Part shown: positions 1,348 to 41,355 of the stretch, piece after piece | Layout of the letters: the number at the start of each line of letters is the position of its first letter | Numbering within the stretch: the stretch's first letter is position 1 | Assembly: GCA_013289095.1 (NCBI GenBank) | Contig: JABDAO010000006.1 | Coordinates: 1 to 60,034 of the forward strand | DNA length: 60,034 nt | Direction: 5' to 3' | From: Bacteroidota bacterium | GTDB taxonomy: Bacteria > Bacteroidota > Bacteroidia > Palsa-965 | Program-made: the position numbers and the translations under genes | The notes under the pieces: generated by a model | The model's input: only the letters and a program-made list of their open reading frames with translations | The model's database searches: none | What the model was told of the DNA's origin: nothing

Positions 1348-1496
1348 TTTATCCCGGGATTTTCGGTTGGAGATGGACAAGGCCCTGAAAGGGCCGCAAG
1401 CTCTGAGGAACAGCGGGATAACCCAAGCCCCTCACACAAAGGTCAAACGCAGGGAACAGGAGGGCAATTCGTTTCTACTGTTCACTTTGGGTTTAT
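1348..1496 (+). repeat. Structured dispersed element, copy 1 (subfamily A)
   Basis: TTTATCCCG...GGCCCTGAAAGGGCC...CAGCGGGATAACCC...AAACGCA GGGAACAG...CTGTTCAC...GGGTTTAT; closest to the copy at 5253. Confidence 0.8.
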
Positions 1497-2134
1497 CTGT
1501 GACACATGTTTCATAATGCAGATTGCACATATACGTAACGCGAGCCTGAAAATTTTACACGGAGTGAAAATAAATTGTAAGAATATCTTGAATGAGGAAA
1601 GCTGAACGCTTATCTTTATGCAGAATTTGATAACCGGTATCATGAAGAGGATAAATCAACAGAGTTTCGATGCGCTGTCCGGCAGCAGGTTTTCTTCCGG
1701 CCATATTGGTATGACTTCCTCACCTGCCTTCCTTTGTTTACCAGGGAAAGCAACCACGCGTGTTCCCGACCCGGCCCAACACATACCTTCCACCCCAAAC
1801 TAATCCGCATTCAGAAAAACTTACCCAGGACCCTTCTTTCTTCCGCCTCCTGATACCTTAGCCGGTATAACGCGGATAGTTGATTATACGGCGGCTCCTT
1901 GTCTTGGATTGCAGGCCGAGGCATATCTGAATTTCACGTCGAAGAGACGAGACAGGTGCGTGGCTCTTGCCCCGGCTTGACCGGGATTGCTGACACCCAC
2001 GAAGAATCAGTATAACGCCTGCCCGTCAGAACATCCCGATAACAACCGGGGTGATCGGGAGCAGCCCAGTTGCGTACAAATAAAAACGGATGACGCTGTT
2101 TTTGAAATTGACAAAACAAACAAAACTGAAACCC

Positions 2135-2410
2135 ATGACTAACATCAATAAAACGAAGATCGGAAAACTGTACAACCTCAGCCCGAGGACAATAACGGGT
2201 TATTTTTCGAAACATCTGCGCGAACTCCGGGCCCTGGCCACGGTACGCACCTTAAAGGATGGACGGGTATGTGTATGCCAGTTCTACAACCCGAAACAAT
2301 TGCAATTCATCATCGATGTAATCATGAAAGACACTCCCGAAGGGTATTCCTTCAACGGAAAAACGTTTGTGAGGATCGATGACAAGGAATTTAAACGCGT
2401 CAGGGAGTGA
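2135..2410 (+). CDS. Small putative DNA-binding protein, DUF4248-like
   Basis: 91 aa from ATG 2135. HTH-like start (KTKIGKLYNLSPRTI) and a FYNPKQLQFI motif resemble Bacteroidota DUF4248 proteins. Confidence 0.5.
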   Translation: MTNINKTKIGKLYNLSPRTITGYFSKHLRELRALATVRTLKDGRVCVCQFYNPKQLQFIIDVIMKDTPEGYSFNGKTFVRIDDKEFKRVRE

Positions 2411-2554
2411 GGTGTTGAACAGACTACCCTTTTGCATCCATGGATACAAGGATAGGGTGATCACACGCGTCACTTCGACCACTGGTGTTTATTAAAAAAG
2501 GCCATCCCAACCAAATGAGACAGCCTTGAATTCGTATACAGAAGAGACCTTTGT

Positions 2555-2848
2555 TCAGATCCTTATTTCATGAATCCGGTGCAGGGGAATCTGCATCCCG
2601 GTTTTGAGGAGCACATATTTTTCGGTCACGCTCCAGATGGTTGTTTCTACCTGTTTCATACCGAGTTTGTCTTCGAAGATGATTTTGACCTTGCCTTTGT
2701 AGTTATTGCCCAGGAGCATGGCCCGTTCGGCATCCGAACGGCGCTGGTTCATGTTTTCGGCCGATTTCAATACATCCTGTAAGGGGAAATTCAGACCGGC
2801 TATAATACTTTTCTCGACCAAGGCGAGTTGGGGATAGGAGATGTTCAT
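2555..2848 (-). CDS. Conserved Bacteroidota hypothetical protein
   Basis: 97 aa from ATG 2848. The LGNNYKGKVKIIF...VETTIWSVT...IPLHRI pattern is familiar from Bacteroidota hypotheticals. Confidence 0.75.
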   Translation of the reverse strand: MNISYPQLALVEKSIIAGLNFPLQDVLKSAENMNQRRSDAERAMLLGNNYKGKVKIIFEDKLGMKQVETTIWSVTEKYVLLKTGMQIPLHRIHEIRI

Positions 2849-2979
2849 GGGGCTCAGGTTTGGGGGTGAGTCTAGTTGTACGCACCAACCCGGCATAGGT
2901 TTCGATAAATGTAAGATATATATGAATTCTTCTTAACCAGAGCGCAAAACAGCCGGAAATTACATTTATAAACACCTGC

Positions 2980-3151
2980 TTTATCCCGCATTATTCATTA
3001 GGAATCGGCCTTCCCACTCAAAAGGATGACAGCACATGCACCCAGCGGGATAACCCGTCTCCCGATGTCTATCAGGACTATCGGGACACACACAAGGCTT
3101 AACGCACTTTGCATTAGCCTGTTGCACGGCTAATGCAAAATCCTGGTTTAA
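2980..3151 (+). repeat. Structured dispersed element, copy 2 (subfamily B)
   Basis: TTTATCCCGC...CTCAAAAGG...CAGCGGGATAACCC...AACGCAC TTTGCATTAGCC...GGCTAATGCAAA...GGTTTAA. Confidence 0.85.
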
Positions 3152-3520
3152 GGATGGACGATTCCACAAGGTCATTCCGATACCGACAAGTTCTTTCTGT
3201 CACGGGGCAGTGCTGACGGATTACGGAATACCATATCACAGATGGTGATCCAGCTCAGGGAGCAGTTTCCGCAAGTGAAGAACCTGCACCACATCAGGGG
3301 AAGTGTAATTACTCACTGGCAGAAACAGGAAGGTGTGATGGAGGCAATGGTAAAGGCAGGGCATAGGTACGTGAGCAGTACCCAGCGATACCAGACCAAT
3401 AAATACGAGGAATTGCAAGACCAACTCAAGACCATGCACCCGCTGGAAGGGATGGCCCTTGGAAGTTATTTCCATGTCTCAATCGCCTACATTTGCAGGG
3501 CTTTAAACAATTCTTTATGA
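3152..3520 (+). pseudogene. Tyrosine recombinase C-terminal fragment
   Basis: HHIRGSVITHW...AGHRYVSSTQRY...HPLE contains the catalytic HxxR, GH and Y motifs. The frame opens directly after a TAA at the end of repeat copy 2, and the N-terminal part is absent. Confidence 0.75.
3488..3495 (+). promoter_or_regulatory. Bacteroidota -7 promoter element TAnnTTTG
   Basis: TACATTTG, 21 nt before ATG 3517. Confidence 0.5.
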
Positions 3521-4416
3521 GTGAATATAGAATTCAAATTATTGGTCATACGCAAGTTTATCCTTGGGTTCAATTAATAAATGCAAACAGGTTTGAGGTC
3601 CTACCCTCCAAACCAAGATCGCTGAATATTGATTTAACTAACATGAATTTTATTGCTCCGTACCATGTGGTTTCTCTGGCTTGTCTGATTGAGGAATATC
3701 ACATGAACGGAGTAATTATTAAGTTCAATCAAGGAAACAATCCTGCAACAGATTATTTAGACCAGCTTGGATTTTTCGACTACTGGAAAAAAGGATTTGA
3801 CAGAAAGAAATACCATCCAGATAAGGTGAGAACCTCTTTTTGTCTCTGGCAGCTGGACATTGAAATGTTTAACGCTTACGTCTTTCAAGCGAAGGATTAT
3901 TTCAACAGACACTTTTTTAGTGACAAGGATTTGCAACCATTGAATGATTCATTGACGGAATTATTTAACAATGTGGTTGACCATTCCGAGTCCCCAGTCA
4001 GAGGGTATGTCTTTACTCAATACTTCCCTAAAAGAAACCAAATAATCATATCGGTATGTGATTTTGGCAATGGTATTCCTAAGACAATAAATCGGTTCCT
4101 TGAACGAACAAAGGGTAAAGGCGTTTCTAACATTGCTGCCCTTCTGATGGGCTTTAAGAAGGGCTTTTCCACCGAATCAACCCCATCAAACAGAGGCTTA
4201 GGGCTTGATAATATAGCATCCATCGTAAAAACTATGAAAAGCGAATTGTTAATAATTTCTAATGACGTGTATTTCAAGCAAAAGCATGATGGTTCGGTGG
4301 TAAAAGCGTTGATGCCAGAAGCCTTCCCTGGCACTCAGGTAGTTATATCCCTTAACACAAGGCACCTGAAACCCTTGGAAGTAGAGGATATTGTCCATGC
4401 CGAATATACTTTGTAA
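3517..4416 (+). CDS. STAS-like + HATPase_c (GHKL) ATP-binding protein
   Basis: N box ELFNNVVDHS, G1 box VCDFGNGIP, G2 box NRGLGLD and terminal FPGTQV. The N-terminal IDLTNMNFIAP...LACLIE segment is STAS-like. Confidence 0.85.
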   Translation: MSEYRIQIIGHTQVYPWVQLINANRFEVLPSKPRSLNIDLTNMNFIAPYHVVSLACLIEEYHMNGVIIKFNQGNNPATDYLDQLGFFDYWKKGFDRKKYHPDKVRTSFCLWQLDIEMFNAYVFQAKDYFNRHFFSDKDLQPLNDSLTELFNNVVDHSESPVRGYVFTQYFPKRNQIIISVCDFGNGIPKTINRFLERTKGKGVSNIAALLMGFKKGFSTESTPSNRGLGLDNIASIVKTMKSELLIISNDVYFKQKHDGSVVKALMPEAFPGTQVVISLNTRHLKPLEVEDIVHAEYTL

Positions 4417-4453
4417 CTTTGTACTAATAAAACCCGCTGAAAACCTGCCAGAT

Positions 4454-4765
4454 ATGAAAACAAACCCAGAAAAAGTAGTGGTGATTGACGTGATGACTTG
4501 CGTTAGTGGTACAACTACATCTTCTGAGGCTGTTTCTCTTTTTATAAAAATGAAACAGTCCTTGGTTGACGGTTTTTCCATCAAGCTGTCATTGATTAAT
4601 GCAACTCCAATGTCTTCGTCTTTCCTGAACGCTTCCTTCGGTGAATTATTTGACCAGTTCGGGTATCCGATGATAAAAGAGCGGATTACTCTTGTAGATT
4701 ACAAACCGTCTCAGGCAAAGCAAATCAAGGATTACCTTGACACAATTAACAAGCTTGTAAAGTAA
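4454..4765 (+). CDS. STAS-like domain protein (DUF4325-like)
   Basis: 103 aa with MSSSFLNASFGELF, the phospho-acceptor-type motif of DUF4325. A TAACTTTG promoter-like site lies at 4414-4421. Confidence 0.8.
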   Translation: MKTNPEKVVVIDVMTCVSGTTTSSEAVSLFIKMKQSLVDGFSIKLSLINATPMSSSFLNASFGELFDQFGYPMIKERITLVDYKPSQAKQIKDYLDTINKLVK

Positions 4766-4792
4766 CGTTTCCATCGCACTTCTTGAAAGTAT

Positions 4793-4819
4793 AAAGCTCC
4801 TTTAATCGGGAGCTTTTTT
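4793..4819 (+). terminator. Rho-independent terminator
   Basis: AAAGCTCC-loop-GGAGCTTTTTT after the STAS gene. Confidence 0.7.
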
Positions 4820-4928
4820 CGTTTACATTTACCTCCAAGTTCTTTGAAAACACTGGAAAAACAACTCAACAGGCTATTGCTCCTTTGGCAAGATTCTGAG
4901 AAGTTATGTACCTTCGGTGTTAGACCAT

Positions 4929-5239
4929 TACGGGTTTGATGGGCTTGAGCGTGATAAGCAGCTCTCTGACAATAATTATACAACGCATTTTAGAGAAATG
5001 GACTCCGAAATAGGACGCTGGTGGCGATTGACTCTAAAATGAAATTCGGTGAAAGTCCGTATGCACTTATGGGGAATAATCCGATTTCGAGAACTGAGCC
5101 GGACGGAGATAGTGATGGGGATGATGAGGATAAATCACTTGTGAAAACACATAAATTCTCTGATGTACCGACCTTATCCGATCAAAAAAACAATGGCCGT
5201 CAGCCTGTCAAGCTTAACAGGTTGAGAATTTTATTTTAA
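4929..5239 (+). pseudogene. RHS repeat-associated core fragment, frameshifted
   Basis: YGFDGLERDKQLSDNNYTTHFREMDSEIGRWW, then a frameshift near 5024, then AIDSK...ESPYALMGNNPISRTEPDGD (RHS core ending in a DPxG-type cleavage site). Only a short C-terminal stub follows. Confidence 0.8.
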
Positions 5240-5252
5240 GAGATACGATTAC

Positions 5253-5413
5253 TTTATTCCGCATTTTTCAGTTGAAGATGGCTAACGCTCTGAAAGGGCC
5301 GCCAGCTATCAGGAGCAGCGGGATAACCCATCCCGATGAATATCGGGACTGCACAAAATCCAAACGCACTGAACAGTAGTGCACTACGTTTCTACTGTTC
5401 ATGTTGGGTTTAT
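5253..5413 (+). repeat. Structured dispersed element, copy 3 (subfamily A)
   Basis: TTTATTCCGC...CTGAAAGGGCC...CAGCGGGATAACCC-TCCCGATGAATATCGGGA...AAACGCAC TGAACAGTAG...CTACTGTTCA...GGGTTTAT. Confidence 0.85.
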
Positions 5414-5546
5414 AGCGTGTTTTGACATCTCTGCTGAAACGGTTTCGGTTACCCGAAAAACCGGCGAGAACTTTGCAAAGACCGGCTAGTGAATTCCTTA
5501 CTTATACCGAAAGAATTTGAGAATATGAACAACACCCCTCGGTATA

Positions 5547-5581
5547 ACCCGTTCTCCCGCTGAAGGAGCGGGAGAACGGGT
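5547..5581 (-). terminator. Stem-loop, probable terminator of the minus-strand T9SS gene
   Basis: ACCCGTTCTCCCGCT-GAAGG-AGCGGGAGAACGGGT, a perfect 15-bp stem. Confidence 0.6.
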
Positions 5582-5608
5582 ATATATTTAGGTTGATGCC
5601 CAGACCAC

Positions 5609-6694
5609 TCATCTCACCACCTCGAACGACTTCATCTCCCGGCTTCCTTTTGAATCTGTAACCGATACCAGAAAGAGCCCAGCTTCGAGCGAAGAGACAT
5701 CCACGGTAAGCAGATTGTCGCCTGTTACAAAGGTGTATTGTTTGCTGAAACGTTGTTTGCCAAGCACATCATACACCCGAACCTCCACATTGCCGGCATC
5801 GACCAAACGGAGGCCCAGATTGATCGCTGTGGTTGACGGGTTTGGATACAGGTTTTTAAACATGCCCGTTGCAGGAGCTGCATACGAAACAATTCCGGAG
5901 GCCGGACAGGAATTGGTACAGGTACAAAAGGTAACACCAGTCATCGTCCCGCTGTTGCCGGTTATTCCTCCTGCCGGGTGGCTGGCATCGCAGATATCCA
6001 CATGTTGCCCTGCTGCGCCAACCGTTCCCGAATTGTATGAGCCCGATGTAATGCTAAAACCACCGCAACCCGACCCTGTGGGCCCTGTAATGGTGGCCGA
6101 ATTATACCAGGCCCCTTTTACGATAACCATGCAGGCTGTATAAAACGAGGCGGAGTACCCGTTGTAAAAATTGGCCCCAACACGCATGTAGCTGCCATTC
6201 GTAACCGAGGCTGAGTAACCGCTCGAAAAAATTCCGGTAGTTGTAAAGTTTCCGTTATTCACCAGCGTGGCCAATGAATCACCAAAGACAGCGCAGGTAA
6301 TTGTTCCTCCTGCATTATTTATCGCACCGTGGTTTGTTACAGCCAGACGTGTATCTGTAAGATTGCTGTAATTATTCAGTACAGAGCCCGAACCGATTAC
6401 CAGCAGGCTGTCGGCCGTAATGGTACCGTAATTGTTTAGTATTCCTCCCCCATCCACTTCCAGGTTGTGGTTGTTTATCATCCCCTGGTTACAAAGCGTA
6501 CCCCCCGCAACTTCGATGAGCCCGGTGCAGGTTCCACCGGCAGCAATGCAAAGCGTGGTTCCGGTAGTGATCAGGTGATTGGTTGGGTCGTTGGTGGTGA
6601 TTGTGGTTGTACACGAAGTGCATTGTGCCTGCCCTGCCAATTGGAGGGCGCATAGCATCATCACAGCCAGGGCTGTACGGGTAATTTTTTTCAT
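5609..6694 (-). CDS. T9SS type A sorting domain protein with beta-helix-like G/N/T-rich body
   Basis: Signal peptide, repeated xNxGxI motifs, and C-terminal LYPNPS...VYDVLGK...LEAGLFLV domain. Confidence 0.9.
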   Translation of the reverse strand: MKKITRTALAVMMLCALQLAGQAQCTSCTTTITTNDPTNHLITTGTTLCIAAGGTCTGLIEVAGGTLCNQGMINNHNLEVDGGGILNNYGTITADSLLVIGSGSVLNNYSNLTDTRLAVTNHGAINNAGGTITCAVFGDSLATLVNNGNFTTTGIFSSGYSASVTNGSYMRVGANFYNGYSASFYTACMVIVKGAWYNSATITGPTGSGCGGFSITSGSYNSGTVGAAGQHVDICDASHPAGGITGNSGTMTGVTFCTCTNSCPASGIVSYAAPATGMFKNLYPNPSTTAINLGLRLVDAGNVEVRVYDVLGKQRFSKQYTFVTGDNLLTVDVSSLEAGLFLVSVTDSKGSREMKSFEVVR

Positions 6695-6882
6695 GAGGAA
6701 GATTTTGGATTACTGAAAGCGAAGGTAGGGATTAATAGCTTGCCTATTCCTGGAAAACCAGGAATCAAGGATCAATACCCGATCCTTAAATTTCAACTGA
6801 AATTGCGAAGCAACAGATGAACGGCGAAAAAGGGAAAATGTTCTGAAGATCCGTTCAGCGCTATGCCGGGACGGCCTGGCCC

Positions 6883-7293
6883 TTACCTGGCTTCGAACGT
6901 AAAAAAAGTATGTATGTCAGAAACATGGTAATCAACCTTGAGTTTGGTTGGTTCGGCGTTTTCTACTTTGTAGGCAAATTTTTCTTTGCTGGCTTCATCC
7001 ACAAAATTTATATAGACCCCCTGTTTGGTCCAGGTGCCGGTCTTGGCATCTCCATTGCGTTTGAGGCTGTATTTTCCATCGCCTGTCATCCATAAAAAAT
7101 CGTCGGCTTGTTTCTTTTTGGGTTTTGATTCCACAGCCCATTCTTCGACGGCAATCAGGAGCCATTTCTTGCCGCAGAGCGAAGTGTCGCGTGCAGGAGC
7201 TGCTTTGGTGGTTTTTACTGGGGTTGGTTTGGTTTGTGCCTTCACGACATATCCGGTAGCGAGCGCAAGCAGCAGTGTAAGTATCTTTTTCAT
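6883..7293 (-). CDS. Exported lipocalin-like hypothetical protein
   Basis: Signal peptide; LCGKKWLL...DGKY...TGTW pattern typical of lipocalin-like domains. Confidence 0.65.
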   Translation of the reverse strand: MKKILTLLLALATGYVVKAQTKPTPVKTTKAAPARDTSLCGKKWLLIAVEEWAVESKPKKKQADDFLWMTGDGKYSLKRNGDAKTGTWTKQGVYINFVDEASKEKFAYKVENAEPTKLKVDYHVSDIHTFFTFEAR

Positions 7294-7307
7294 AGTACGT
7301 GTTCTGT

Positions 7308-7733
7308 TTACGAGAGTAAAGATAGAAATTTATCTTCTAACCGGGTCATCCGGGCTTTGTTGGTCTTGCCTTTGTCTGAAAAGCCGAGCAGGTGCAGCAA
7401 GCCATGCACCATGACGCGGTGCAACTCTGTTTCGAACAGCTGGCCCTCGGTTTTAGCATTGTCGCGTATGCGGTCTATGCTTAGGTAGATATCGCCTGAA
7501 ATGACTTTTTTCTCCGAATAATCGAATGTGATCACATCGGTATAATAATCGTGTTTCAGGAATTGCTTGTTGATGCCAAGCAGGTAGGTATCGGTGCAAA
7601 AAATATAGTTCAGCGTCCCCGTTTGTTTTTTGTGAAAAGCGATGACCTGATAAAGCCAGAGACGGAGTGTTTTCTGGTTTTTTAATTTATAACGAGCTAT
7701 TTCAGAGTGAAAGGAGATGGATTCTGGCGACAC
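7308..7733 (-). CDS. ybeY: rRNA maturation RNase YbeY
   Basis: HDYYTDVITF, GDIYLS and HGLLHLLGFSD metal-binding motif. Confidence 0.95.
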   Translation of the reverse strand: MSPESISFHSEIARYKLKNQKTLRLWLYQVIAFHKKQTGTLNYIFCTDTYLLGINKQFLKHDYYTDVITFDYSEKKVISGDIYLSIDRIRDNAKTEGQLFETELHRVMVHGLLHLLGFSDKGKTNKARMTRLEDKFLSLLS

Positions 7734-7742
7734 AAACAGGCG

Positions 7743-8165
7743 TTAGTTTGCAGAAAGTTTAAAATCAAGGACCACTTTGGAGCCGTTATCCTCGAATTCA
7801 ACCTTATCGGCCAGGTGTTTCATCAGGAACACACCTCTTCCGTTTGGTTTCTCGATATTTTCGGGATTTGTCGGATCCGGGAGCTGGGTATAATTAAAGC
7901 CTTCGCCTTCATCCTTCACCGAAAAACGCAGGTGATGATCGTCAGACAGATAACTGATATCGATATTTTTATTGGGATTGGCCTTATTGCCATGCTGGAT
8001 TGCATTGTTAACCGCTTCGGTGATGGCTACCAGGATATTTCCGTAATGGTCTTCGCTGATATTGTAGGTCTCACAAATGGTATTTACCAGTTTTTCAACG
8101 AAAGCCATGCTTTCGGCTTGTGATGTAATCCTGATCTTTTTTTCTTCTTCTGCCATTCGAATCAT
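7743..8165 (-). CDS. RsbW-like anti-sigma factor / HATPase_c_2 protein
   Basis: EAVNNAIQHGN, VKDEGEGF and GRGVFLMKHLAD motifs. Confidence 0.9.
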   Translation of the reverse strand: MIRMAEEEKKIRITSQAESMAFVEKLVNTICETYNISEDHYGNILVAITEAVNNAIQHGNKANPNKNIDISYLSDDHHLRFSVKDEGEGFNYTQLPDPTNPENIEKPNGRGVFLMKHLADKVEFEDNGSKVVLDFKLSAN

Positions 8166-8196
8166 GGTGTTATTTCTTTAAAAGTGTTGAAATATA

Positions 8197-11100
8197 CTAC
8201 TGTTTTTCTTCAAAACTGTTAAAATACTGGGAAACTTTGACTTTATAATAAGGGCTTAATGAAGGGGGTACAGTCTTCAAAAGCTCCACTTCCCTCGACT
8301 TTAAACGGTTGTATTCAAGAAACTCATTTGTATTGCTAACATCTTGTGTTTTAGGTTGATCGGCTTTCCTTTCGGTATCCATCTCCCGCTCTTTTTCTGC
8401 CTTTTCGTAGTCCAGCATCTTGGTTAAAATCTCCTGCTGCCTCCGAATGGTTTCTTGCGTTATACGCTTATTTACCAGATCGGTTTCAGTTTCATCCATC
8501 TTTTCGGCAGTATTGCCCAGCGTCCCCCCCCCTTTACCGTCCTTTTTTTGCTGATCAGACATCTTTTGGAGCAATTCGCGTATGGCTTCCTGCTGGGCTG
8601 CCATGCGGGCAAATTCCTCGCTCATGCCCTTTCCGTCCTTGCCTTTTCCGTCCTTCATTTTTTTCATCATCTCACCCATCTGCGCATTCAGTTTCTGCTG
8701 CATCTGCCGGAGTGAGGCTCCGGTCTGTTTTTGGCCCTTTCCTCCCGGTTTGTTGCAGCTTCCGGCCCCCGGTTTGCCCTTTTTGGCGGCTTCCTGCATA
8801 TTGCTGAGGGCTTCGTTGAGCAACAAAGCCAGGTTGTTGACCGAAGTCATAGAATACTGCTGGCGTGAGGCCGCTTCGCCCGTGTTCCGATCGGCCAGAC
8901 TGGTGATGGCCTTTTCCATGTTCATATTGATAGCGCTCACCTCTTTGTTCACCATATCGCCAATAGCAGGGTTCCGTTTGCTGAGGGCAAACAAACTGTC
9001 CTCGATCATTTTTGCATCGTCCTTGAGCATATTTTGCTTTTGGGCAATTTTTACATACTGGGGGTTATCGGTTCGGGTCTTGCCCAAATCGGTCATGAGG
9101 GCCTCCTGATCAAACGAAAGCCGCACCAGGTTCTGGAGGATCTGACGCAACGCATTGACATCTTCTTCATTCTCCTGTTCGGCCATTTTTGCCTGCATCT
9201 GGGCCAGCTTCTGGCTTAGATCCTCCATCTTTTCGGCAGCTGATTTTTGTGATTTGGATGCTTTTTTGTTTTCCTTGTTTTGCAGATCCGCGCTGCTCTC
9301 CTTCATATCTTTCTGGATTTGCTGTTCCTGAGGTTCTGTGCTTTTCAGTTCATCGTGCGGTTTTTCGAGGGCATCGTTCTTTTTCTGCAGGTCTTCCAGT
9401 TGTTTCTTGATGTCCTCAAATTCCTTGTTCATCTGGTCTTGTTTGTTTTCCAGTTCTTTGGAATCCTGCTTTTTGTCTTCTGTTTTTTCAGCAAGCTTTT
9501 TCTGGTCATCGGCCAGCTTGTCGAGCCGTTCTTTGGTATCGGTCAGTTTTTTATCGAATTCCATTTGTTTGAACAACTCCAGGGTGCGGTCTAGCTCCTT
9601 CTCCAGGTCTTTGTTGCTCAGTTTCATTTTTTCGAGTTCCTCCTGCATCTTGTCCTTGTCCATGGTCTGCATGAGTTTATCAAGGTCTTTCATCTGTTTC
9701 TTCATATCCTCGGTGAGGAGCTGATCAAACAGGTCCTGGATCTGTTTCTGCTTTTCCACCAGTTTCTCGTTGTCTTTCCGGTACTCGGTCTGTTCCTGCT
9801 GGCTTTTGGAGTTTTCTTTTTTAAACTGCTCGATGCTGTTTTCCAGTTTTTGTTGTTTGTCTTTAAGCTCCTGAATTTTCTTTTTGTCTTCCCAACTGAG
9901 CGATTTTTTCTCGAGCACTTTTTTATGGAGCTCGTCGATATCTTTTTGCAGGTCTTTGGCCTTCTGGATACTCTCAGAGATATCACTTTTCACGGTCTGG
10001 CTCGATTCTTCCGATTTCTCAGCCAGCTCTTTGAGTGTAGGGGCCTGGAAGAGCATTTTCTGGCTGCGGGTAGTCTTTGGCCCATGCACCCCGTCGTTAT
10101 CAGACACTTCGAAAAAATATTCGATCTGATCGCCGGGGGCCAGGTTGAGTTTGCCCAGATCCCAGAAATACATGAACTGATCTTGGGTGAATGTGCCCGA
10201 AACAGGGATGCGTTCTGTCACATACTTCGCCCCGGCAGTGTTGCCTGCCGCAGCCGAATCTTCTTTGTGGTTGAGTTTGTAGTTAAAATTAAGCCCCGTA
10301 AAGCCATAGTCATCCTTCACTTCGCCATGATAGTACAGACGCTGTGTCGAAACAGAGTCCTTTCTTTCTTCCACCTCCATGGTAGGATACAGATCGGGAA
10401 TCACATTGATGGCATACACAACCGAATCTTTGCTTTTAATAAATTCGTTGGAGGTGGTGATCGAATACGAATCGCTTTTCAGGAACCTGTTTTTGTAACT
10501 GCACGCATTGGCCGATGGGCTGAGCAGATAGGCCGTATCCTGAAAATTAATGCGGAGACTCCGGGTATCCTTTGTATTAAAATTCCACGAAACCCTGGTG
10601 CCCGCCGGAATGACCAGATCACCCGTATTGTGCAAGACCTCGTTTTTCTTCCCGATATAGGCCGGGTAATCCAACTGAATTTCGAAATTGAGGAGCACCG
10701 GGTTAGGCAGCACGCTGATCTCGTATTCATGCGAGGTATAACCATCGGCGCTGAGTTTGAATTTGGTATTGTGTTGCAGGTTTTTGAAGACATAACTAAA
10801 ATTCACCACGTTGTCGCGGCTGAGTTTGTATTCATTGCCATCCACCAGTAAGAGCACCGTTTCGGGAATTTCCTGCCCCGTAATTTTTACCTCCAGCGAA
10901 AAATCCTGCTGCTCAATGGTCTTGAGCTGGTTGTTCACCACGTTAAAATGAAAAGGGGCTTCCCTTTCATAAAAATCGCTGTGGTGCACCAGGCGTTTTG
11001 TGCTTTCGGTAATGATGCTGGGCGAAGCAAAAACAATAAAGAGGATAAGTACCAGCGGGATGACTGCATATTTTACATAGCGCTTGTTCTGGCCCACATC

Positions 11101-11565
11101 AATAGCCGATGCAAACGGGATGGGTTTAAGCTCCCTGGTTTTTTGATCGATCGAAGCCTCCAGCAAGGTAAGGCTGGAGGTATTTGAGTGGGTGATGCCC
11201 GCTTGGGCAACTGCTTTACGAAGCTGGAGCAGGTTCAGGAGTTTATCTTTTACTTCCGAAAAATGTTTCCCGATGATTTCGGCAGCCTGTTCATTGCTGA
11301 TGACAACCCCGATCTTGTTGAGTTTTGATAACGGAATGAAGATATATCGGCCGGCGATAGCAAGCACGGATAAAACAAGGGTATAAAACAGGATGGTACG
11401 GATGGTGGTATCAAAATGTGCGTATGATTCAAGCAGGGCCACGGCCAGATAAAATCCAAGGATCAGCCCGGTGGAATAAAGCAGGCCTTTGATAAGCTGG
11501 TTTTTGTAATACTTACGTATAAATTCGTCCAGCTTTTGTACTAAGATGTCTTCCTGATAATCCAT
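8197..11565 (-). CDS. DUF4175-family membrane-anchored long coiled-coil protein
   Basis: N-terminal TM helices, an Ig-like middle, DNDGVHGPK, and a long E/K/Q-rich coiled coil. It sits upstream of the rsbW-like gene and ybeY, as is usual in Bacteroidota. Confidence 0.85.
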   Translation of the reverse strand: MDYQEDILVQKLDEFIRKYYKNQLIKGLLYSTGLILGFYLAVALLESYAHFDTTIRTILFYTLVLSVLAIAGRYIFIPLSKLNKIGVVISNEQAAEIIGKHFSEVKDKLLNLLQLRKAVAQAGITHSNTSSLTLLEASIDQKTRELKPIPFASAIDVGQNKRYVKYAVIPLVLILFIVFASPSIITESTKRLVHHSDFYEREAPFHFNVVNNQLKTIEQQDFSLEVKITGQEIPETVLLLVDGNEYKLSRDNVVNFSYVFKNLQHNTKFKLSADGYTSHEYEISVLPNPVLLNFEIQLDYPAYIGKKNEVLHNTGDLVIPAGTRVSWNFNTKDTRSLRINFQDTAYLLSPSANACSYKNRFLKSDSYSITTSNEFIKSKDSVVYAINVIPDLYPTMEVEERKDSVSTQRLYYHGEVKDDYGFTGLNFNYKLNHKEDSAAAGNTAGAKYVTERIPVSGTFTQDQFMYFWDLGKLNLAPGDQIEYFFEVSDNDGVHGPKTTRSQKMLFQAPTLKELAEKSEESSQTVKSDISESIQKAKDLQKDIDELHKKVLEKKSLSWEDKKKIQELKDKQQKLENSIEQFKKENSKSQQEQTEYRKDNEKLVEKQKQIQDLFDQLLTEDMKKQMKDLDKLMQTMDKDKMQEELEKMKLSNKDLEKELDRTLELFKQMEFDKKLTDTKERLDKLADDQKKLAEKTEDKKQDSKELENKQDQMNKEFEDIKKQLEDLQKKNDALEKPHDELKSTEPQEQQIQKDMKESSADLQNKENKKASKSQKSAAEKMEDLSQKLAQMQAKMAEQENEEDVNALRQILQNLVRLSFDQEALMTDLGKTRTDNPQYVKIAQKQNMLKDDAKMIEDSLFALSKRNPAIGDMVNKEVSAINMNMEKAITSLADRNTGEAASRQQYSMTSVNNLALLLNEALSNMQEAAKKGKPGAGSCNKPGGKGQKQTGASLRQMQQKLNAQMGEMMKKMKDGKGKDGKGMSEEFARMAAQQEAIRELLQKMSDQQKKDGKGGGTLGNTAEKMDETETDLVNKRITQETIRRQQEILTKMLDYEKAEKEREMDTERKADQPKTQDVSNTNEFLEYNRLKSREVELLKTVPPSLSPYYKVKVSQYFNSFEEKQ

Positions 11566-11813
11566 AGCGCCTGGCATCTTCAATCCCGAGGAGCGGAAAC
11601 AAGCATGCCAAGCAAATTTAACACTATTTAGGGGAGAATCCCGTGTCTTGATTGCTGGGGGTGACATTTTAACAGATATTAGGAGAATTACCCGCCCGGG
11701 AAACCTGAGATGCCGGCCTTAATCCTCAGAATCAGAGAAATAGTTGACAAATGGGGGAAAGAATACTGGCCCCGGCCCTTCTTCCATGGAAATTGCTATT
11801 AAATTTACCCTAG

Positions 11814-12347
11814 ATGAAGTTCGAATCCAACGCCGAGTTTAAGGAATTGTGTGAAACCTGGAATGTTCCGGAAGATCTTCGGTTTGACCTGGTCTTGCCT
11901 CCGGGGGTAGTGCAAATCCTGGATGATGATATTATCGAAAACAAATATGGCATACGGCTTAAAAAAAACGGTTCGGCAAACCCGCCCAATGGCAATCAGG
12001 ACCTGAATAAATCACAAGCGGAAGACAGCAACAATCATTTTCATGTCGATTGGTTTGTAAAACCCTTGTCGAACGAGGGTGTGTTCCGTCTGGGTCTTAA
12101 AACAATGCTGGAGCTTGCTGAGAAATTCAGGGCAAAAGGGTATAAGGATATCTGTTTTACCTATTCCTTTATGTCAACCGATATGCGTAAGCAATGGAAT
12201 AAAAAACATGGTTTTGACGAAGAACCCGAAGACGAAAGCTATATCAGCGAGCGATTGAGCTTTCACCGGCTGAGGGCGGGAGAAACGGTTCTCGAATTTG
12301 ATCCGAAGATGCGGAAGTTTGAAGCATTGCTGCTGATCAAGATATAG
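11814..12347 (+). CDS. Hypothetical protein
   Basis: 177-aa ATG ORF with normal globular composition; no family recognised. Confidence 0.6.
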   Translation: MKFESNAEFKELCETWNVPEDLRFDLVLPPGVVQILDDDIIENKYGIRLKKNGSANPPNGNQDLNKSQAEDSNNHFHVDWFVKPLSNEGVFRLGLKTMLELAEKFRAKGYKDICFTYSFMSTDMRKQWNKKHGFDEEPEDESYISERLSFHRLRAGETVLEFDPKMRKFEALLLIKI

Positions 12348-12434
12348 GGCCTAACCAGGCCAAAACAACGCGTTAAACTCCTTAACGGGTTCTGTTCTTA
12401 TCAGTTTTCTTACCCGACACCGAAGGAAAAACGC

Positions 12435-12842
12435 TTACGGACGCATGGCTTTTAAGGTAACCGCTTCAGCCTCGTCCATACAGATGTAGGCATGGCTGTA
12501 ATCGCCAAACTTGGGATATTGAGATGCCGTTGTGATGCACAATGCGGCATGATGGCAATGGGCGGTATAAACCAGCTTTGAAAACTGCTGCCGGTATTTT
12601 TTCTGTTTAAAATTCTTCTTCAGATCTCCCGAAGCAGAAAACTGAAACTGCGAAACCGTTTCCACCAGCATGGCCCGGTTTTGCGCTTCGTTGCTGATCT
12701 TCGAACGGATCATCACGTTCCAGCCATAGAGATTGGCCGAAATTTTTTCGGGCAATTCAAAATCGGTCTCCACCACATTTGCGGATGAAGCTGCAAGGAG
12801 CTTTTTCTTGATCAGGTAGACATTCCTCAGGTGTAGTTTCAT
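12435..12842 (-). CDS. Hypothetical protein, possibly SecB-like fold
   Basis: 135 aa. The order of beta strands then helix (LHLRNVYL...VETVSQFQF...LVYTAHCHHAAL) loosely resembles SecB-like chaperones. Confidence 0.5.
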   Translation of the reverse strand: MKLHLRNVYLIKKKLLAASSANVVETDFELPEKISANLYGWNVMIRSKISNEAQNRAMLVETVSQFQFSASGDLKKNFKQKKYRQQFSKLVYTAHCHHAALCITTASQYPKFGDYSHAYICMDEAEAVTLKAMRP

Positions 12843-13387
12843 GGGTTTTGGTTTTTATGAATTGTGACTTCATGCTGAAAATCAGTTTTCTGTGCGCCCT
12901 CACTAATAATTACTCTTTTTCGTTCATTGCAATTGATGATTATGCTCAACCTTCCAGACTAAAAACTCAATGTCGTTTTACATATTACATTACACGCTTA
13001 TTTATAATCATTTTTATTATATTAACCCCTAAGCTCCTTCCTTTTTTAACATTCAACCTATATGTTTAGATATCAAAACATCAATATTACAGGATAAGAA
13101 TAACATTCCGTGTAGTACAAACAACTACATTTACTATAATTAATACACAATTTTATCTCATACAGTATCTTATTTTAATATTTATATATAAGTAATTTAA
13201 CATATTTTAACACCAAAACGATAGAACTCTTGTTCCAAAAGACGAGAATTAATTTTTACAATATGCTGTATATCTATTAATTACATACATATTGAAGGTA
13301 AATCCGCAGTTTGTAAGGCGAGGCTAAGATGCAGATAAATTGATAGGTAATTAACAATATCATAAATATTGCACCAGGCATGCAATC

Positions 13388-13550
13388 TTTATCCCGCAAT
13401 CATGCATTAGAGACACGCCTTCACGCTCAAAAGGCCATCAGCGCTGCCGCCCAGCGGGATAACCCGTCTCCCGATGTCTATCGGGACGCAAACAAGCTTA
13501 ACGCACGTTGCATTAGCCTGTTACACGGCTAATGCAAAACAAGGGTTTAT
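13388..13550 (+). repeat. Structured dispersed element, copy 4 (subfamily B)
   Basis: TTTATCCCGC...GCCTTCACGCTCAAAAGGC...CAGCGGGATAACCC-GTCTCCCGATGTCTATCGGGAC...AACGCAC GTTGCATTAGCC...GGCTAATGCAA...GGGTTTAT. Confidence 0.9.
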
Positions 13551-13629
13551 TGAAGTATATGCTCGCGCAGACACCGGTTAGCATAAACCGGTGGAGCAAG
13601 ATCTGGTCTTGGAGGAAGTAGGGGGATTA

Positions 13630-14532
13630 TTAAACAGAGGCGCTCTCAAAAGAGCGAAACCTTCCAAAAACCCCGAGCGGGAGCTTGTTTCCGGCGGTGG
13701 CTTGCAGAAACAGTTCTCCTGTCTCCACCCTTCCATGCGCGGAAGGCTTGATGAGGTTTTCGATTATAAGCGATGAAAAACCAAGCGAATACGCGTTTAG
13801 GATCAAAAAATGCCCCCGGGGATCCAGAAGTTGAATAACCCCCTTCATCATTTCGTTGATATTGTCTTCCAGCTTCCATTTTTCTCCATTCGGACCATGC
13901 CCGAAGGCAGGAGGATCGAGGATAATGCCGTTGTATTTATTGCCGCGTTTTTCTTCCCGTTTTACAAATTTCAATGCATCTTCAACAACCCAGCGGATAT
14001 TTTCGAGCGTTGAGAGATCCATATTCTCCCTTGCCCAGCTAACCACCTGTTTAATGGAATCGACATGGGTCACGTCGGCTCCGGCAGCTTTGGCTGCAAG
14101 CGACGCGCCTCCGGTATAGGCAAAGAGGTTCAGAAAACGTGGGGTTTCACCAGGAAGCAACCGTTGCACCTGGCGAACGGAATCGGCAATATATTCCCAG
14201 TTCGAAGCCTGTTCGGGGAAGATGCCTACATGTTTAAACGAAGTAAGCCCCAGCCGAAACCGGAGTTCAGGCCCTTTTCCCTGCAGGGCATATTTTATCT
14301 GCCATTGATCGGGCATCTTATGCAATGTTTTCCACTCACCGGCCGAACTGGACCGGGGCACGAATTTTACATGTGCACGCTGTTCCCATTCTTTTACAGA
14401 AAGGGTACGGTCCCATACCGCCTGAGGTTCGGGCCGTATCGTCAGATAATTTCCGAACCGCTCGAGTTTCTCAAAATCGCCGACGTCAATCAGTTCGTAA
14501 TCTTTCCAATAAGCTGGGGTGAGAAATTGCAT
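13630..14532 (-). CDS. Class I SAM-dependent methyltransferase (RlmI-like)
   Basis: FLNLFAYTGGAS SAM-binding motif, IILDPPAFG, and FKHVGIFPEQ. Confidence 0.9.
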   Translation of the reverse strand: MQFLTPAYWKDYELIDVGDFEKLERFGNYLTIRPEPQAVWDRTLSVKEWEQRAHVKFVPRSSSAGEWKTLHKMPDQWQIKYALQGKGPELRFRLGLTSFKHVGIFPEQASNWEYIADSVRQVQRLLPGETPRFLNLFAYTGGASLAAKAAGADVTHVDSIKQVVSWARENMDLSTLENIRWVVEDALKFVKREEKRGNKYNGIILDPPAFGHGPNGEKWKLEDNINEMMKGVIQLLDPRGHFLILNAYSLGFSSLIIENLIKPSAHGRVETGELFLQATAGNKLPLGVFGRFRSFESASV

Positions 14533-26321: not shown

Positions 26322-26437
26322 TTGTATCGCCAAAAATATAGTTTCACGGTTCCTTCCTATTCATGGTTCTTTTCTTCTTACATAGCAGGCACATCGGATC
26401 GTTTTGGGTCCACGTCATTTTCGGGGGAGTAACCTGT

Positions 26438-26598
26438 TGTATCCCGCATTATGCATTAGAACCAGGCATTCGCGCTCAAAAGGCCAGCAGCACAACGAAC
26501 CTGCGGGATAACCCATCCCGATGACTATCGGGACACACACAAAGCTTAACGCACGTTGCATTAGCCTGTTACACGGCTTTTCCAAAATCCCGGTTTAT
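26438..26598 (+). repeat. Structured dispersed element, copy 5 (subfamily B)
   Basis: TATCCCGC...GCTCAAAAGGCC...GCGGGATAACCC-ATCCCGATGACTATCGGGAC...AACGCAC GTTGCATTAGCC...GGTTTAT. Confidence 0.9.
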
Positions 26599-26721
26599 AG
26601 CATAGACCCTCGATAAAAAACGCTTGCTATTCCTCATTCCGGTACGAAACGTTCGGAAATCTGTCGGAACAGGAATGGAACCTTACGGATTGTATCAGAA
26701 ACATTAGAGGGCAGCTTACAA

Positions 26722-27545
26722 CCTTGACAAGGCATCACGCAGCCTTAGCAAGGCATCATGTAGCCTTGACAAGGTATCTCGTAGCCTTAGCAAGACATCT
26801 TACAACCTTGCAAAGGCATTTCGTAGCCCTGATAAGGAACCAGAGGGAAAGTATCAGGAACCTCGGGGAACATGTCGGGAACCTTAGTGAACATGTCGGG
26901 AAACTCGGGGAACATGTCGGGAAGCTTGGGGAACATGTCGGGAAGCTTAGTAAACATGTCGGGAAACTCGGGGAACATGTCGGGAAGCTTGGGGAACATG
27001 TCGGGAAACTCGGGGAACATGTCGGGAAGCTTAGTAAACATGTCGGGAAACTCGGGGAACATGTCGGGAAGCTTAGTAAACATGTCGGGAAACTCGGGGA
27101 ACATGTCGGGAAGCTTAGCAAACATGTCGGGAAGCTTAGTAAACGTGTCGGGAAGCTTAGTAAACATGTCGGGAACCTTGGGGAACATGTCGGGAAGCTT
27201 AGTAAACATGTCGGGAACCTTGGGGAACATGTCGGGAAGCTTAGTAAACATGTCGGGAAGCTTAGCAAACATGTCGGGAAGCTTAGTAAACATGTCGGGA
27301 ACCTTAGTAAACGTGTCGGGAAGCTTAGGGAACATGTCGGGAAGCTTAGTAAACATGTCGGGAAACTAAGGGAACATGTCGGGAAGCTTGGGGAACGTGT
27401 CGGGAACCTAAGGGAACATGTCGGGAACCTTGGGGAACGTGTCGATAACCTAAGGGAATGTGTCGGGAACCTCGGGGAACATGTCGGGAACCTCAGGGAA
27501 CATGTAAGGAACCTGAGGGAATGTGTCGGGAACCCCTGGGAAACG
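26722..27545. repeat. 21-bp-period tandem array (about 39 units, two sub-arrays)
   Basis: About 5 units of CTTGACAAGGCATCACGCAGC type, followed by about 33 units of (GCTTAGTA/ACTCGGGG)AACATGTCGGGAA. Confidence 0.95.
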
Positions 27546-27866
27546 TGTCTCTGGCTGGATCAACATGCAGCAGTTATTCGATCTCTGCCCCCCGGCTTTT
27601 GACATTGACCCCTGGTTTTGTCTATCTCGTGTACATCTATGTTCCTCCAGGTCTCCGTGGCAAGTCAATATAGCCCCCTATCAACGTGGAGTGGTATGGC
27701 TTTGTGCTTTTCTCCTAATTAATTAACGTATCCCCAATATTATGTTTACCCGAAAAAACGAGCTTTGATTCGTAGAGCTAATAAACAAAATCCAGCCCTA
27801 TCATTCAGAAAATATCAAACAACGCTGCAAGCACTTTCATAAAATCATACTTAAAAAAACAAAATC

Positions 27867-33476: not shown

Positions 33477-33488
33477 GTAGCCTTATCC

Positions 33489-37235: not shown

Positions 37236-37416
37236 AAACCTGCTCCTTGAAAAAGTGAGGGGCGATCTTTCAAAACTCCCGATTGGCTATCAAAACTGGA
37301 ATGTCAATTCCCGGCATGCCTACGACCAGGGTGCTATCTGCATGCCGTCTCCCCTGCACCAAACCGCTAAACTGGTTTGCAAACGGTTCTACAAGGCCAT
37401 TACTATTTTTATCTGA
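37219..37416 (+). CDS. Small accessory protein of the grasp-with-SPASM cluster
   Basis: 65 aa, overlapping the gwsG stop and ending 8 nt before the gwsS start; LPIGYQNWNVNSRH motif. Confidence 0.65.
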   Translation: MLTEHKNLLLEKVRGDLSKLPIGYQNWNVNSRHAYDQGAICMPSPLHQTAKLVCKRFYKAITIFI

Positions 37417-37424
37417 CAAACAAA

Positions 37425-38477: not shown

Positions 38478-38574
38478 CCCCGGCCCAATCGGGATGTTTC
38501 GTTTTCCGGATGACGCTCAGGCAAGACGACTTCAAAATCCGACCATTCACGTGTCCAGCCATCTTTTGAAACCT

Positions 38575-40086: not shown

Positions 40087-40572
40087 AGCGCCACACGCAA
40101 GCAGTGCCTCCGTGTCTCTGTAGTAAATACAAACCACAGGCCCCCATCGTTCACACCTAATTAAGCGCGGTGGATGTATCGGGAAGCCCTCGTAACCCGA
40201 CTACAGCTACATGCATCTTTTTCAGGCCAGCCTTCAGGAAAGTAATGCTTTCGGCAGAACTTCCCAGACAGAAAAGAAGGGCACCAGCAAATAATGCTTT
40301 TTACGGACGAAGGTTACAAATACATTTCCAAACTCGTCGTACAATTCTCTGGCCTGTTCATTCTTGCGATAAGCAACTTCGACAGTGTATTCGTTCCCTT
40401 TGTTCCAGCTCTGGCGGCCATGTTTATCAAAACAAACAAACTATAATAAAGTATATTGTATATGAAACAGGAAACGGCTCATTCCGCGTCTGGAAATTAA
40501 ACCGGTTTCATTCCAAAAAGAAAAGAATCTTCCTTTTTCCCTTTCTGTTTCTCTTTCTGTTTCTTTTTTCAC

Positions 40573-40656
40573 CTTCATTTTCAACCTGTCTACCGTCAAT
40601 TTCACGTAGTTCAACAAAAAATTAAAAATTGCCCCGTTTCCCTGCTTAGACTTGTA
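40573..40656 (+). promoter_or_regulatory. Regulated promoter, copy 2 (upstream of the DUF4199-like gene)
   Basis: Ungapped match to 35683-35766; TAGACTTG lies about 17 nt before ATG 40672. Confidence 0.6.
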
Positions 40657-40671
40657 GAAAATTATGACGAC

Positions 40672-41148
40672 ATGGATATCATCAGCAGTACCGAGAGCAG
40701 TAAAATACGGGGAACCTCGGCCCTGACCCTGCAAAGCATACGCACGGGTTTATGGGTGTGTATGAGCTTGATCATTTATTTTTTAATAATGGAAAGCCTG
40801 GGGTTTTTGGAGCATTTGATACTCCGGGCCTTTAACCTGGTACTCCTTGTTACCGGAATTTACTGGGCCTTGTATAGATACAGCCGCAGCAGAGGAGGCA
40901 AGATCGATTATTTTGACGGCATCCGTCTGGGGATACAAACAACACTCATAGCCACTGCACCCTTTGCCGTGTTTATCGGTATTTTTCTGGGCATGGATGC
41001 ACCCCTCATGAATTACATTATCCAGACTGTCGATATCGGTAATTATGTCTTCTCCCCGCTCACGGCTTCGGCAGCAGTAGCTGCTGAAGGCATCAGTTCG
41101 GGGTTTATCGTCACCTTCATCTTAATGCCTTGGTTTAAAAAACAATAA
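40672..41148 (+). CDS. DUF4199-like four-TM membrane protein
   Basis: Four hydrophobic helices with LRAFN and IDYFDGIRLG motifs. Confidence 0.8.
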   Translation: MDIISSTESSKIRGTSALTLQSIRTGLWVCMSLIIYFLIMESLGFLEHLILRAFNLVLLVTGIYWALYRYSRSRGGKIDYFDGIRLGIQTTLIATAPFAVFIGIFLGMDAPLMNYIIQTVDIGNYVFSPLTASAAVAAEGISSGFIVTFILMPWFKKQ

Positions 41149-41203
41149 CTCTTTTCCTCCAGTACACCTCGTTTCTTTTCCTTCCTTTTTGTGTTGTGTT
41201 ACA

Positions 41204-41245
41204 CAAGCCCCCGAAGTCTGCTCACTTCCGGGGGCTTGCCTCTTT
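41204..41245 (+). terminator. Rho-independent terminator
   Basis: CAAGCCCCCGAAGT...ACTTCCGGGGGCTTG followed by CCTCTTT. Confidence 0.6.
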
Positions 41246-41355
41246 ATCCCAGATTTCATTCTGAATCGGCCTTCCCGCTCAAAAGGCTAATAGCATATAC
41301 ACCCAGCGGGATACCCCGTCTCCCGACGTGCTATCGGCAGACGGGGTATCCCGCT
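41243..41355 (+). repeat. Structured dispersed element, copy 6 (3'-truncated, ends in a fold-back)
   Basis: TTTATCCC...GCCTTCCCGCTCAAAAGGC...CAGCGGGATACCCCGTCT, then the perfect inverse AGACGGGGTATCCCGCT. Confidence 0.8.

Follow-up and report, generated by a model that had tools for sequence, protein, structure and literature searches.

A probable family of miniature DNA transposons with exchangeable hairpin modules in an uncultured soil bacterium

A stretch of 60,034 nucleotides from a Bacteroidota bacterium (contig JABDAO010000006.1, positions 1 to 60,034 of the forward strand; hereafter the window) holds six loci of related, short, hairpin-rich sequence, the first at position 1348 and the last ending at 41433. 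What are these elements, and by what means did they reach their positions? The original prediction, made from the sequence alone, proposed a non-autonomous mobile element of single-stranded DNA (ssDNA) or RNA with replication-strand bias, a recombination site or a structured non-coding RNA (ncRNA). Our analysis indicates that the loci are very probably members of one family of non-autonomous DNA transposons, or miniature inverted-repeat transposable elements (MITEs), with more than 100 copies in this one uncultured soil bacterium. Its copy number, a target-site duplication, filled and empty sites, inverted ends and nesting in and by other repeats are demonstrated here. It is well defined and apparently undescribed.

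The window is contig C6 of assembly G000, which comprises 2.95 Mb in 167 contigs and is estimated to be 62% complete. A search profile was built from the six window loci, whose alignment has a mean column identity of 67%, and was run over the whole assembly with a cut-off of E < 1e-3. This genome-wide collection of copies, proposed as a check in the original prediction, yielded 133 matches on 69 of the 167 contigs, the six window loci scoring E = 3e-48 to 5e-34. The matches total 19.3 kb, or 0.65% of the assembly; 115 of them cover 100 or more model positions, and of the 97 that are nearly complete 76 have canonical ends and lengths of 135-196 bp. The element proper reads 5'-CCC...GGG-3' and measures about 137-165 bp. 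It has no coding capacity, as the insertions and deletions of modules are not multiples of three. Called open reading frames (ORFs) contain 11 of the 115 copies and are mostly spurious frames of ~100 amino acids; one copy lies in a 1,126-aa ORF whose Peptidase_M1 domain is far from the element, and one in a 455-aa ORF with no Pfam match. Contig edges hold 21 of the 115 copies.

The 97 near-full copies were then aligned together with their surroundings. Similarity among them ends five bases beyond CCCGC on the left and five bases beyond GGG on the right, and the two 5-mers co-vary. Identical 5-mers stood on both sides in 41 of the 76 canonical copies, against a mean of 19 and a maximum of 30 in 10,000 shuffles of the right 5-mers. 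When the 38 copies with a left 5-mer other than TTTAT were taken separately, 14 identical pairs were found (shuffled mean 2.2, maximum 9), including ATAAA, ATTAT, TTTAA, ATAAT and ATGAA. After copies with shared outer flanks had been dropped, 59 remained, of which 32 had identical 5-mers and 50 matched in at least four of the five positions. The repeat was in register at length 5 only, with 32 matches against 1, 0, 0 and 0 at lengths 3, 4, 6 and 7. The target logo was W-T-W-A-W: 98% of copies have T as the second base and 97% have A as the fourth. The WTWAW consensus is its own reverse complement, and its commonest form is TTTAT.

Two host repeats occur both with and without the element. Five copies of the first are empty and read ...GTAACCTGT-TTTAT/TTTAG-ACC(T/C)TTTCTT...; at the same point the sixth copy carries TTTCT, a 152-bp element and TTTAC, and in the seventh two left halves, joined as an inverted dimer, stand between TTTAT and TTTAG. 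In the second host repeat four copies are empty (...CATTTG-TTTAT-TGTCAAAC..., with TTTAG in one of them), two are filled (...CATTTG-TTTAT-element-GTTAT-TGTCAAAC...), and a third filled copy, on contig C74, has the same start followed by a tandem pair of elements. These paralogous filled and empty sites therefore reveal that the site was there before the element and that insertion duplicates five of its bases. The TTTAT next to the element is not part of it but a target-site duplication of 5 bp, and the original statement that no target duplications were to be seen is overturned by the co-varying 5-mers and the empty sites. In head-to-tail tandems (C74, C52, C116, C120, C40 and C10) one TTTAT is shared between the members, which is what insertion into an earlier duplication is expected to give. 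As for an orthologous empty site of the fourth window copy, the neighbouring gene was kept in all five congeners (79-84% identity) and the DNA downstream was non-syntenic. Two soil-metagenome contig sets, one of them probably the origin of the assembly, gave repeat pile-ups alone, with no contig skipping an element.

The copies begin with CCCGC and finish with (C/T)(C/T)GGG (CCCGCATT.../...GGG; consensus ends CCCGCATTATTCATTAGAAGT and CCCGGATTTTGCATTAGCCGT). Their first and last ~20 bases form an imperfect inverted repeat with a consensus near CCCrsATTwTkCAkTAG. On comparing the first 21 bases with the reverse complement of the last 21, a mean of 11.5 matches was obtained (range 6-16), against a mean of 5.0 of 21 in interior control windows (95th percentile 8). 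End types also pair up: left TCAGTTG is accompanied by right ACAGTAG in 11 copies, and GCATTAG by GCATTAG, the observed sum being reached by 1 of 5,000 permutations. Several short derivatives were found, with 5-mers matching or nearly so in each. A 60-bp derivative on C81 consists of a left end and a right end flanked by TTTAT and TTTAT, and derivatives with two inverted left ends are present at C26:17259-17332, C5:50971-51045, C4:36782-36938 and window positions 41243-41433. A subfamily lacking 17 bases of the right repeat has still spread (C29, C17, C28 and C46).

The interior of the element is modular. On the 5' side, (TAT)CCCGC/GCGGG(ATA) closes a long hairpin; next come a small hairpin, CCCGAT..ATCGGG, which is optional, and a 3' hairpin in which the right terminal repeat, as the outer arm, pairs with an inverted internal copy of itself as the inner arm. 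Some copies have further palindromic inserts, and modules are freely gained, lost and doubled among copies. The structure was drawn by hand from single-copy folds, which also give a closing helix AACCC/GGGTT; for 56 copies, RNAalifold arrived at no consensus. In two copies the fold z-scores were -3.65 (DNA) and -4.38 (RNA), and none of 200 shuffles was as good in either. Helix P1 pairs (T)TATCCCGC with GCGGGATA(A), and P2 is a weak inner helix. Pairing was examined in 56 of the 76 copies, with less than 93% mutual identity and four long variants excluded. In this set 85.5% of cells were paired, against 80.0% in shuffles and 29-44% with slid partners, and both sides had changed in 7 of the 11 pairs of the 3' hairpin, figures to be read with the facts that only ~4 hairpin types exist, that few independent events are involved and that the shuffle control ignores subfamily relatedness. 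P1 showed almost no covariation, and P2 had 77% of its cells paired. Two structural claims of the original prediction thus hold: the 3' hairpin is swapped in sequence with its position and structure kept, and the central GCGGGATAACCC has a possible pairing partner at each end (88% of cells paired in P1 and 86% in P5). The sequence type of the 3' hairpin moreover changes in step with the left end.

Other small sequences occur within the family. Two ~44-nt palindromic inserts, CCGCCCGGCC...GGACGGGC and GCCTGCCTGCCGT...ACGGCAGGCAGG, sit at fixed positions of the MITE, and with the patterns searched in the genome (9 and 3 matches) both were found inside this family only. Their sites are C20:4122, C35, C55:6224, C28:23275, C5:21242, C51:5000, C46:17090, C75:2720, C31:22518, C32:13863, C1:43412, C55:15351 and C3:13545. 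Another small repeat, with ends TCAGTATCCAACAATCAAATTACCAATG.../...CCATCTAAC, is inserted at AATT within at least eight MITE copies, on the left side at C76:80-238, C3:13451-13646, C26:3180-3349, C66:11041 and C51:5001-5113, and on the right side at C5:13651, C34:21658 and C97:2322. The AATT inside the MITE looks like a preferred target of this repeat.

In the window, the individual loci are as follows.

1348..1496, plus strand: copy 1; element at 1353-1491, 139 bp (E = 3.9e-36), with target duplication TTTAT at 1348-1352 and 1492-1496; no small middle hairpin; 3' hairpin of type A (TGAACAG.../...CTGTTCA).
2980..3151, plus strand: copy 2; element at 2985-3146, 162 bp (E = 3.4e-48), flanked by TTTAT (2980-2984) and TTTAA (3147-3151); middle hairpin doubled; 3' hairpin of type B (TTGCATTAGCC/GGCTAATGCAA).
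5253..5413, plus strand: copy 3; element at 5258-5408, 151 bp (E = 4e-42), with target duplication TTTAT at 5253-5257 and 5409-5413; 3' hairpin of type A.
13388..13550, plus strand: copy 4; element at 13393-13545, 153 bp (E = 1.4e-46), with target duplication TTTAT at 13388-13392 and 13546-13550; 3' hairpin of type B; genes on both sides on the minus strand.
26438..26598, plus strand: copy 5; element at 26443-26593, 151 bp (E = 2.5e-45), flanked by TGTAT (26438-26442) and TTTAT (26594-26598); right terminal repeat degenerate (GGCTTTTCCAA); nested in a ~1.2-kb repeat at 26402-27619.
41243..41433, no single strand: locus 6; two truncated copies, tail to tail, without the 3' hairpin module; the plus-strand 5' half starts at 41248 after TTTAT and includes the small hairpin (E = 5.4e-34), and an inverted 5' half lies on the minus strand at 41433-41291 (E = 8e-10).

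Related sequence is thus present at all six places named in the original prediction; the motif order given there holds in five and fails at the locus 41243, which is a pair of joined half copies. The claim that all copies face the same way holds for this contig only. The six listed window copies do read on the plus strand, copies 1 to 3 being spaced at 1.6 and 2.3 kb; the seventh, partial copy is on the minus strand. On other contigs orientations are mixed (C4 ++--+, C7 ++-+-, C1 -+++), and neighbours more than 1 kb apart had the same orientation in 15 cases and different orientations in 18. No support was obtained for the proposed replication-strand bias: orientation was not related to the sign of the local GC skew (30/32 vs 27/20, Fisher p = 0.44), a comparison whose power is limited by the weak skew of the draft. 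On a crude ORF map, 49 copies were in co-directional, 21 in convergent and 13 in divergent gaps, and of the 49, 17 were oriented with the genes and 32 opposite to them (binomial p = 0.044).

How far does the family extend? A covariance model of the family was run on 35 genomes of the bacterial family. It recovered at least 83 copies in G000, two in G009, one in G042, one or two in G002 and two weak matches in G008; the remaining 30 of the 35 genomes gave zero matches. The G009 and G042 copies are built like those of G000, flanked by TTTAA/TTGAA and with GGGGTTAACCGAGATGC at the centre. The top identity between independent copies in G000 was 98%, not 100%. Because matches in relatives are few and the best identity among the G000 copies is 98%, we consider this an old family that underwent a fairly recent burst in one species. 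With a burst in one species against two matches at most per relative, this is a lineage-specific repeat expansion.

An undescribed non-autonomous mobile element, one of the options in the original prediction, is what the dispersed copies, the filled and empty sites and the database searches point to. No Rfam family was matched at gathering scores across the whole window, nor at E <= 5 by the elements in positions 1-14,000; the sole gathering-level matches in the window are one tRNA and one group II intron domain, both away from the elements. Exact-pattern scans for the element centre in genome and metagenome contig collections, from which the records of this genome or of near genomes may be excluded, returned nothing, and when one copy was compared by BLAST with 40 relatives, plasmids and phages, G000 alone was matched. 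Among the literature matches listed, no title or abstract referred to an IS1380-derived MITE.

We next consider which enzyme moves the element. The 5-bp duplication, the terminal inverted repeats and the lack of strand bias together argue for a DDE-type reaction with cutting and staggered joining, and therefore against the HUH/ssDNA mechanism of the original prediction. As no protein is encoded, the transposase must come from elsewhere. A transposase supplied in trans would move the element into a WTWAW site, where a 5-bp staggered cut would duplicate the target. The hairpins may matter for end recognition or may be by-products of it.

Taking into account the 5-bp staggered cut, the 5'-CC ends and a partial similarity of the ends, we put forward a DDE transposase of the IS1380 family, related to piggyBac, as the likeliest mover, at somewhat less than even odds. 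In PMC10813416, IS1380 transposases are taken as a prokaryotic outgroup for piggyBac, which has ends beginning with CCC and targets TTAA; Table 2 of PMC3281130 lists IS1247, of the IS1380 family, with 5-bp direct repeats. IS1380-type transposases were found in 7 of the 34 other genomes of the bacterial family (G002, G004, G015, G016, G019, G020 and G043); G002 and G004 are congeners, both with IS1380 matches, and no claim is based on G043, which is flagged as unpublished. Two IS1380-family elements in G019 could be bounded; both run from CC to GG and are flanked by AT-rich repeats of 5 bp. Element 1 (1,431 bp) is flanked by TTTAA and TTTAA, has the ends CCGTAAACATGCAGTAGGAT and CCGTAAATAGACAGTAGGAT, and encodes a 437-aa transposase on C95. 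Element 2 (1,732 bp) is flanked by TTAAA and TTATA and has the ends CCTAAATTGAGCGATT and CCTAGATTGAGCGATT. Of the MITE's right ends, type A (CCCAACATGAACAGTAGAAAC) has in common with element 1 the initial CC and CAGTAG at positions 12-17 (11/21 by hand count), and type C (CCCAGATTGTGC) agrees with element 2 in 10/12 positions by hand count, the shared sequence being CCyAGATTGwGC. For five further IS1380-like genes in relatives, no ends could be delimited. A seemingly intermediate end in G019, CCGTAAATATTCAGTTGAAT, was discarded as a chance match within a 136-aa ORF.

A number of observations weigh against this account. The IS1380 transposase model NF033539 had no match in G000, and no longer, autonomous element with the MITE ends was found there, the assembly being 62% complete in both cases; nor was an autonomous element found in G009, G042 or G002 with the end variants of these genomes. 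Across the 35 genomes the elements and the IS1380 genes do not co-occur, G002 alone having both. The likeness to the IS1380 ends is short, was picked post hoc among several ends and could be due to chance, and 11/21 is about what the two ends of the MITE itself share. In addition, TTTAT stands on the left side in 38 copies and its complement ATAAA in 4, which a purely symmetric target does not predict. Copies without most of the right inverted repeat keep matching 5-mers (TTAAA/TTAAA at C29:9501, ATAAA/ATAAA at C17:14709); therefore only ~12 terminal bases may be needed.

With regard to other movers, it is possible, if somewhat doubtful, that the MITE is or was moved by a DDE transposase of another or unsampled family, or is a fossil without a living partner. 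The lack of a partner gene in the assembly and of co-occurrence with IS1380 genes in the related genomes would fit this explanation, as would a best identity between independent copies that stops short of 100%; other insertion sequence families also make 5-bp duplications. On the other hand, CC ends with a 5-bp AT-rich duplication are exactly the features of the two bounded G019 elements, and the transposases that are seen in the assembly, namely an IS5-family element, an IS21-like pair and an IS110 fragment, do not fit; Tn3 and IS1595 models had no matches in G000. The IS5-family element was considered as a parent, as a truncated MITE copy on C105 sits ~150 bp beyond it, but its ends, AGGGYTCACTCAAA, are those of a different abundant repeat. 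Also rejected were the IS21-like pair on C12, which has no MITE copy within 3 kb, and the IS110 fragment on C2, which lies beside the end of the 21-nt-array repeat. Movement by an HUH (Y1) enzyme as an ssDNA element, either palindrome-associated in the manner of IS200/IS605 or of the REPIN/RAYT type, inserting beside TTTAT and recognised through its hairpins, would agree with the stable hairpins at or near both ends, with the complementarity of the preferred flank TTAT to the internal ATAA, and with the presence of three Y1 genes in the genome (C42:18015-18446, C13:15681-16103 and C9:42016-42591). We regard it as highly improbable. The right 5-mer follows the left (ATAAA, ATGAA, TTGA(A/C)) while the internal ATAA stays constant, which therefore indicates a duplication and not a guide-specified cleavage site, and altered centres (GATTACCC, GACAACC and GAGAACC) bring no matching change of the flank. 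The idea that the internal ATAA guides the element to a TTAT target was accordingly abandoned, as ATAA persists beside variable flanks and altered centres go with ordinary ones. The element has terminal inverted repeats, there is neither GC-skew bias nor local co-orientation, and each Y1 gene is flanked on both sides by its own unrelated GC-rich hairpin repeats, with none of the three within 3 kb of a MITE copy.

Could the copies instead be structured ncRNA genes, or regulatory signals that act in cis as RNA or DNA (for instance as terminators, sites of processing or sites of protein binding), with hairpins that are retained because they serve the host and with mobility secondary? The compensatory changes in the 3' hairpin, the excess of paired cells over slid partners, the fold z-scores and the mild orientation skew in co-directional gaps (17 vs 32) all lean in this direction. 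The covarying 3' hairpin is, however, the right terminal repeat with an inverted internal copy of itself; its ~4 types and a shuffle control that ignores subfamily relatedness reduce the force of the pairing data, P1 almost lacks covariation and P2 is poorly kept. Together with the absence of an Rfam match and of an RNAalifold consensus, the free gain, loss and doubling of modules, the occurrence in convergent, divergent and co-directional gaps alike, and the scarcity of matches in related genomes, this makes an RNA or regulatory function very unlikely as the primary nature of the element. Least probable of all are site-specific recombination sites, whether integron attC-like or targets of an IS110-type recombinase, and we regard these as an extremely slight possibility. 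Imperfect palindromes with structure better kept than sequence, three co-oriented copies close together at the start of the window and the IS110-family fragment on C2 could be cited in their favour. Against them are the spread of copies over 69 contigs among ordinary housekeeping genes, the variable 5-bp duplications, the existence of empty sites and the mixed orientation elsewhere. The original prediction had also suggested looking for copies that flank a transposase or recombinase gene; beside the window copies there is none among the 45 ORFs scanned with Pfam. These ORFs are ordinary chromosomal genes of Bacteroidota type, and their matches include several type-9-secretion sorting domains, GH20, GH92, a Glu/Gln-tRNA ligase and FolB.

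Returning to a DDE-moved MITE, we also considered whether its transposase may recognise folded DNA, that is hairpin or cruciform ends, more than sequence. This is unlikely, and was raised because both ends and the inner arm of the 3' hairpin vary in concert, in four hairpin types or more, without loss of pairing, because the centre GCGGG-ATAA-CCC mirrors the junction of right end, target and left end, and because extra palindromes sit at fixed points and were found inside this family only.

The family shares features with several known repeats. Like the Correia/NEMIS elements of Neisseria, it is non-coding, ~100-160 bp long and dispersed in more than 100 intergenic copies, with inverted ends, a fixed duplication, end-to-end folding and subfamilies produced by internal deletion. 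In Correia elements the inverted repeats are nearly perfect over 26 bp and the duplication is TA; the present family differs from them in its imperfect ends (~11.5/21), its 5-bp WTWAW duplication and its mosaic of exchangeable hairpin modules. It resembles REP, BIME and REPIN sequences in its short palindromes, its head-to-tail and inverted arrangements and its many intergenic copies. To our knowledge, REPINs have not been reported to make target duplications, whereas the present family has both duplications and empty sites, and the Y1 genes of this genome are flanked by other repeats. With the BOX elements of Streptococcus pneumoniae (boxA-boxB-boxC) it has in common a construction from internal modules that may be absent or repeated; we know of no defined target duplication or transposase-type ends in BOX elements. 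The IS1380 members IS1247 and the two G019 elements likewise have 5-bp duplications, and those of G019 also CC...GG ends; the short likeness of the terminal repeats, with CAGTAG at the same offset in element 1, could be due to chance. Unlike them, the window elements are without a transposase gene, and the similarity is confined to ~20 terminal bases. BrickBuilt and other MITEs of Porphyromonas gingivalis (Klein et al. 2015, PMC4596501) belong to the same phylum and are likewise non-coding, intergenic and nested with mobile repeats. BrickBuilt has the ends GAGACCTTTGCA (IS5-like) and irregular duplications (CT, GAAA, AAAAA). The family in G000 differs in its ends, CCCGC.../...GGG, in its strict 5-bp duplication and in the lack of a tandem array in the 150-bp element.

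A well-supported MITE call here takes the place of a candidate new RNA or ssDNA element, and this bears on the annotation of the present assembly and of similar ones from soil Bacteroidota. In G000 the more than 100 copies break the assembly and generate spurious ORFs of ~100 aa. If the transposase does recognise folded ends and is of IS1380/piggyBac type, no earlier MITE family would be known from that lineage, and the elements would offer a natural example of structure-guided end recognition with a symmetric WTWAW target. IS1380-type transposases are poorly studied relatives of piggyBac, and the target logo and natural end variants could be used to test their choice of ends and targets.

Several other repeats were noticed in the course of the analysis. 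The ~1.2-kb repeat around copy 5 has its own inverted ends (GGGTCAACGTCATTTTCCGGGG... / ...CCCCGGCTTTTGACATTGACCC) and carries a 21/42-nt tandem array of ~33 units at 26857-27542, much as BrickBuilt has 22/23-nt repeats (PMC4596501). Parts of it recur on C1, C4, C8, C36, C59 and other contigs, and at C64:16401-16547 it is inserted into a MITE copy. Two further arrays with a 21-nt period, of 19 and 15 units, are present in the window at 694-1097 and 50052-50375; their unit sequences are unrelated, and long spurious ORFs result. The IS5-family element (NF033578, 294 bits) is split over contig ends (C124:4469-4943, C105:1-931 and C36:26302-26481), and its ends are shared by a second abundant short repeat (AGGGTTCACTCAAACACC...) with ~40 copies genome-wide, whose flanks resemble TTA/TAA. 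The Y1 genes with their flanking hairpins form a RAYT/REP-like arrangement.

The group II intron match in the window (Rfam, domains D1-D4, 58 bits) lies on the minus strand at 51547-51643; no reverse-transcriptase ORF was evident near it in the ORFs scanned, and the intron may be ORF-less or truncated. The tRNA gene is located at 41544-41614. Downstream of it, within 41544-51300, is a run of defence or accessory-type genes comprising a 920-aa ORF without a Pfam match, GmrSD, DUF4760, a Fic protein and a DUF6036 nucleotidyltransferase, and this run may be an island inserted at the tRNA.

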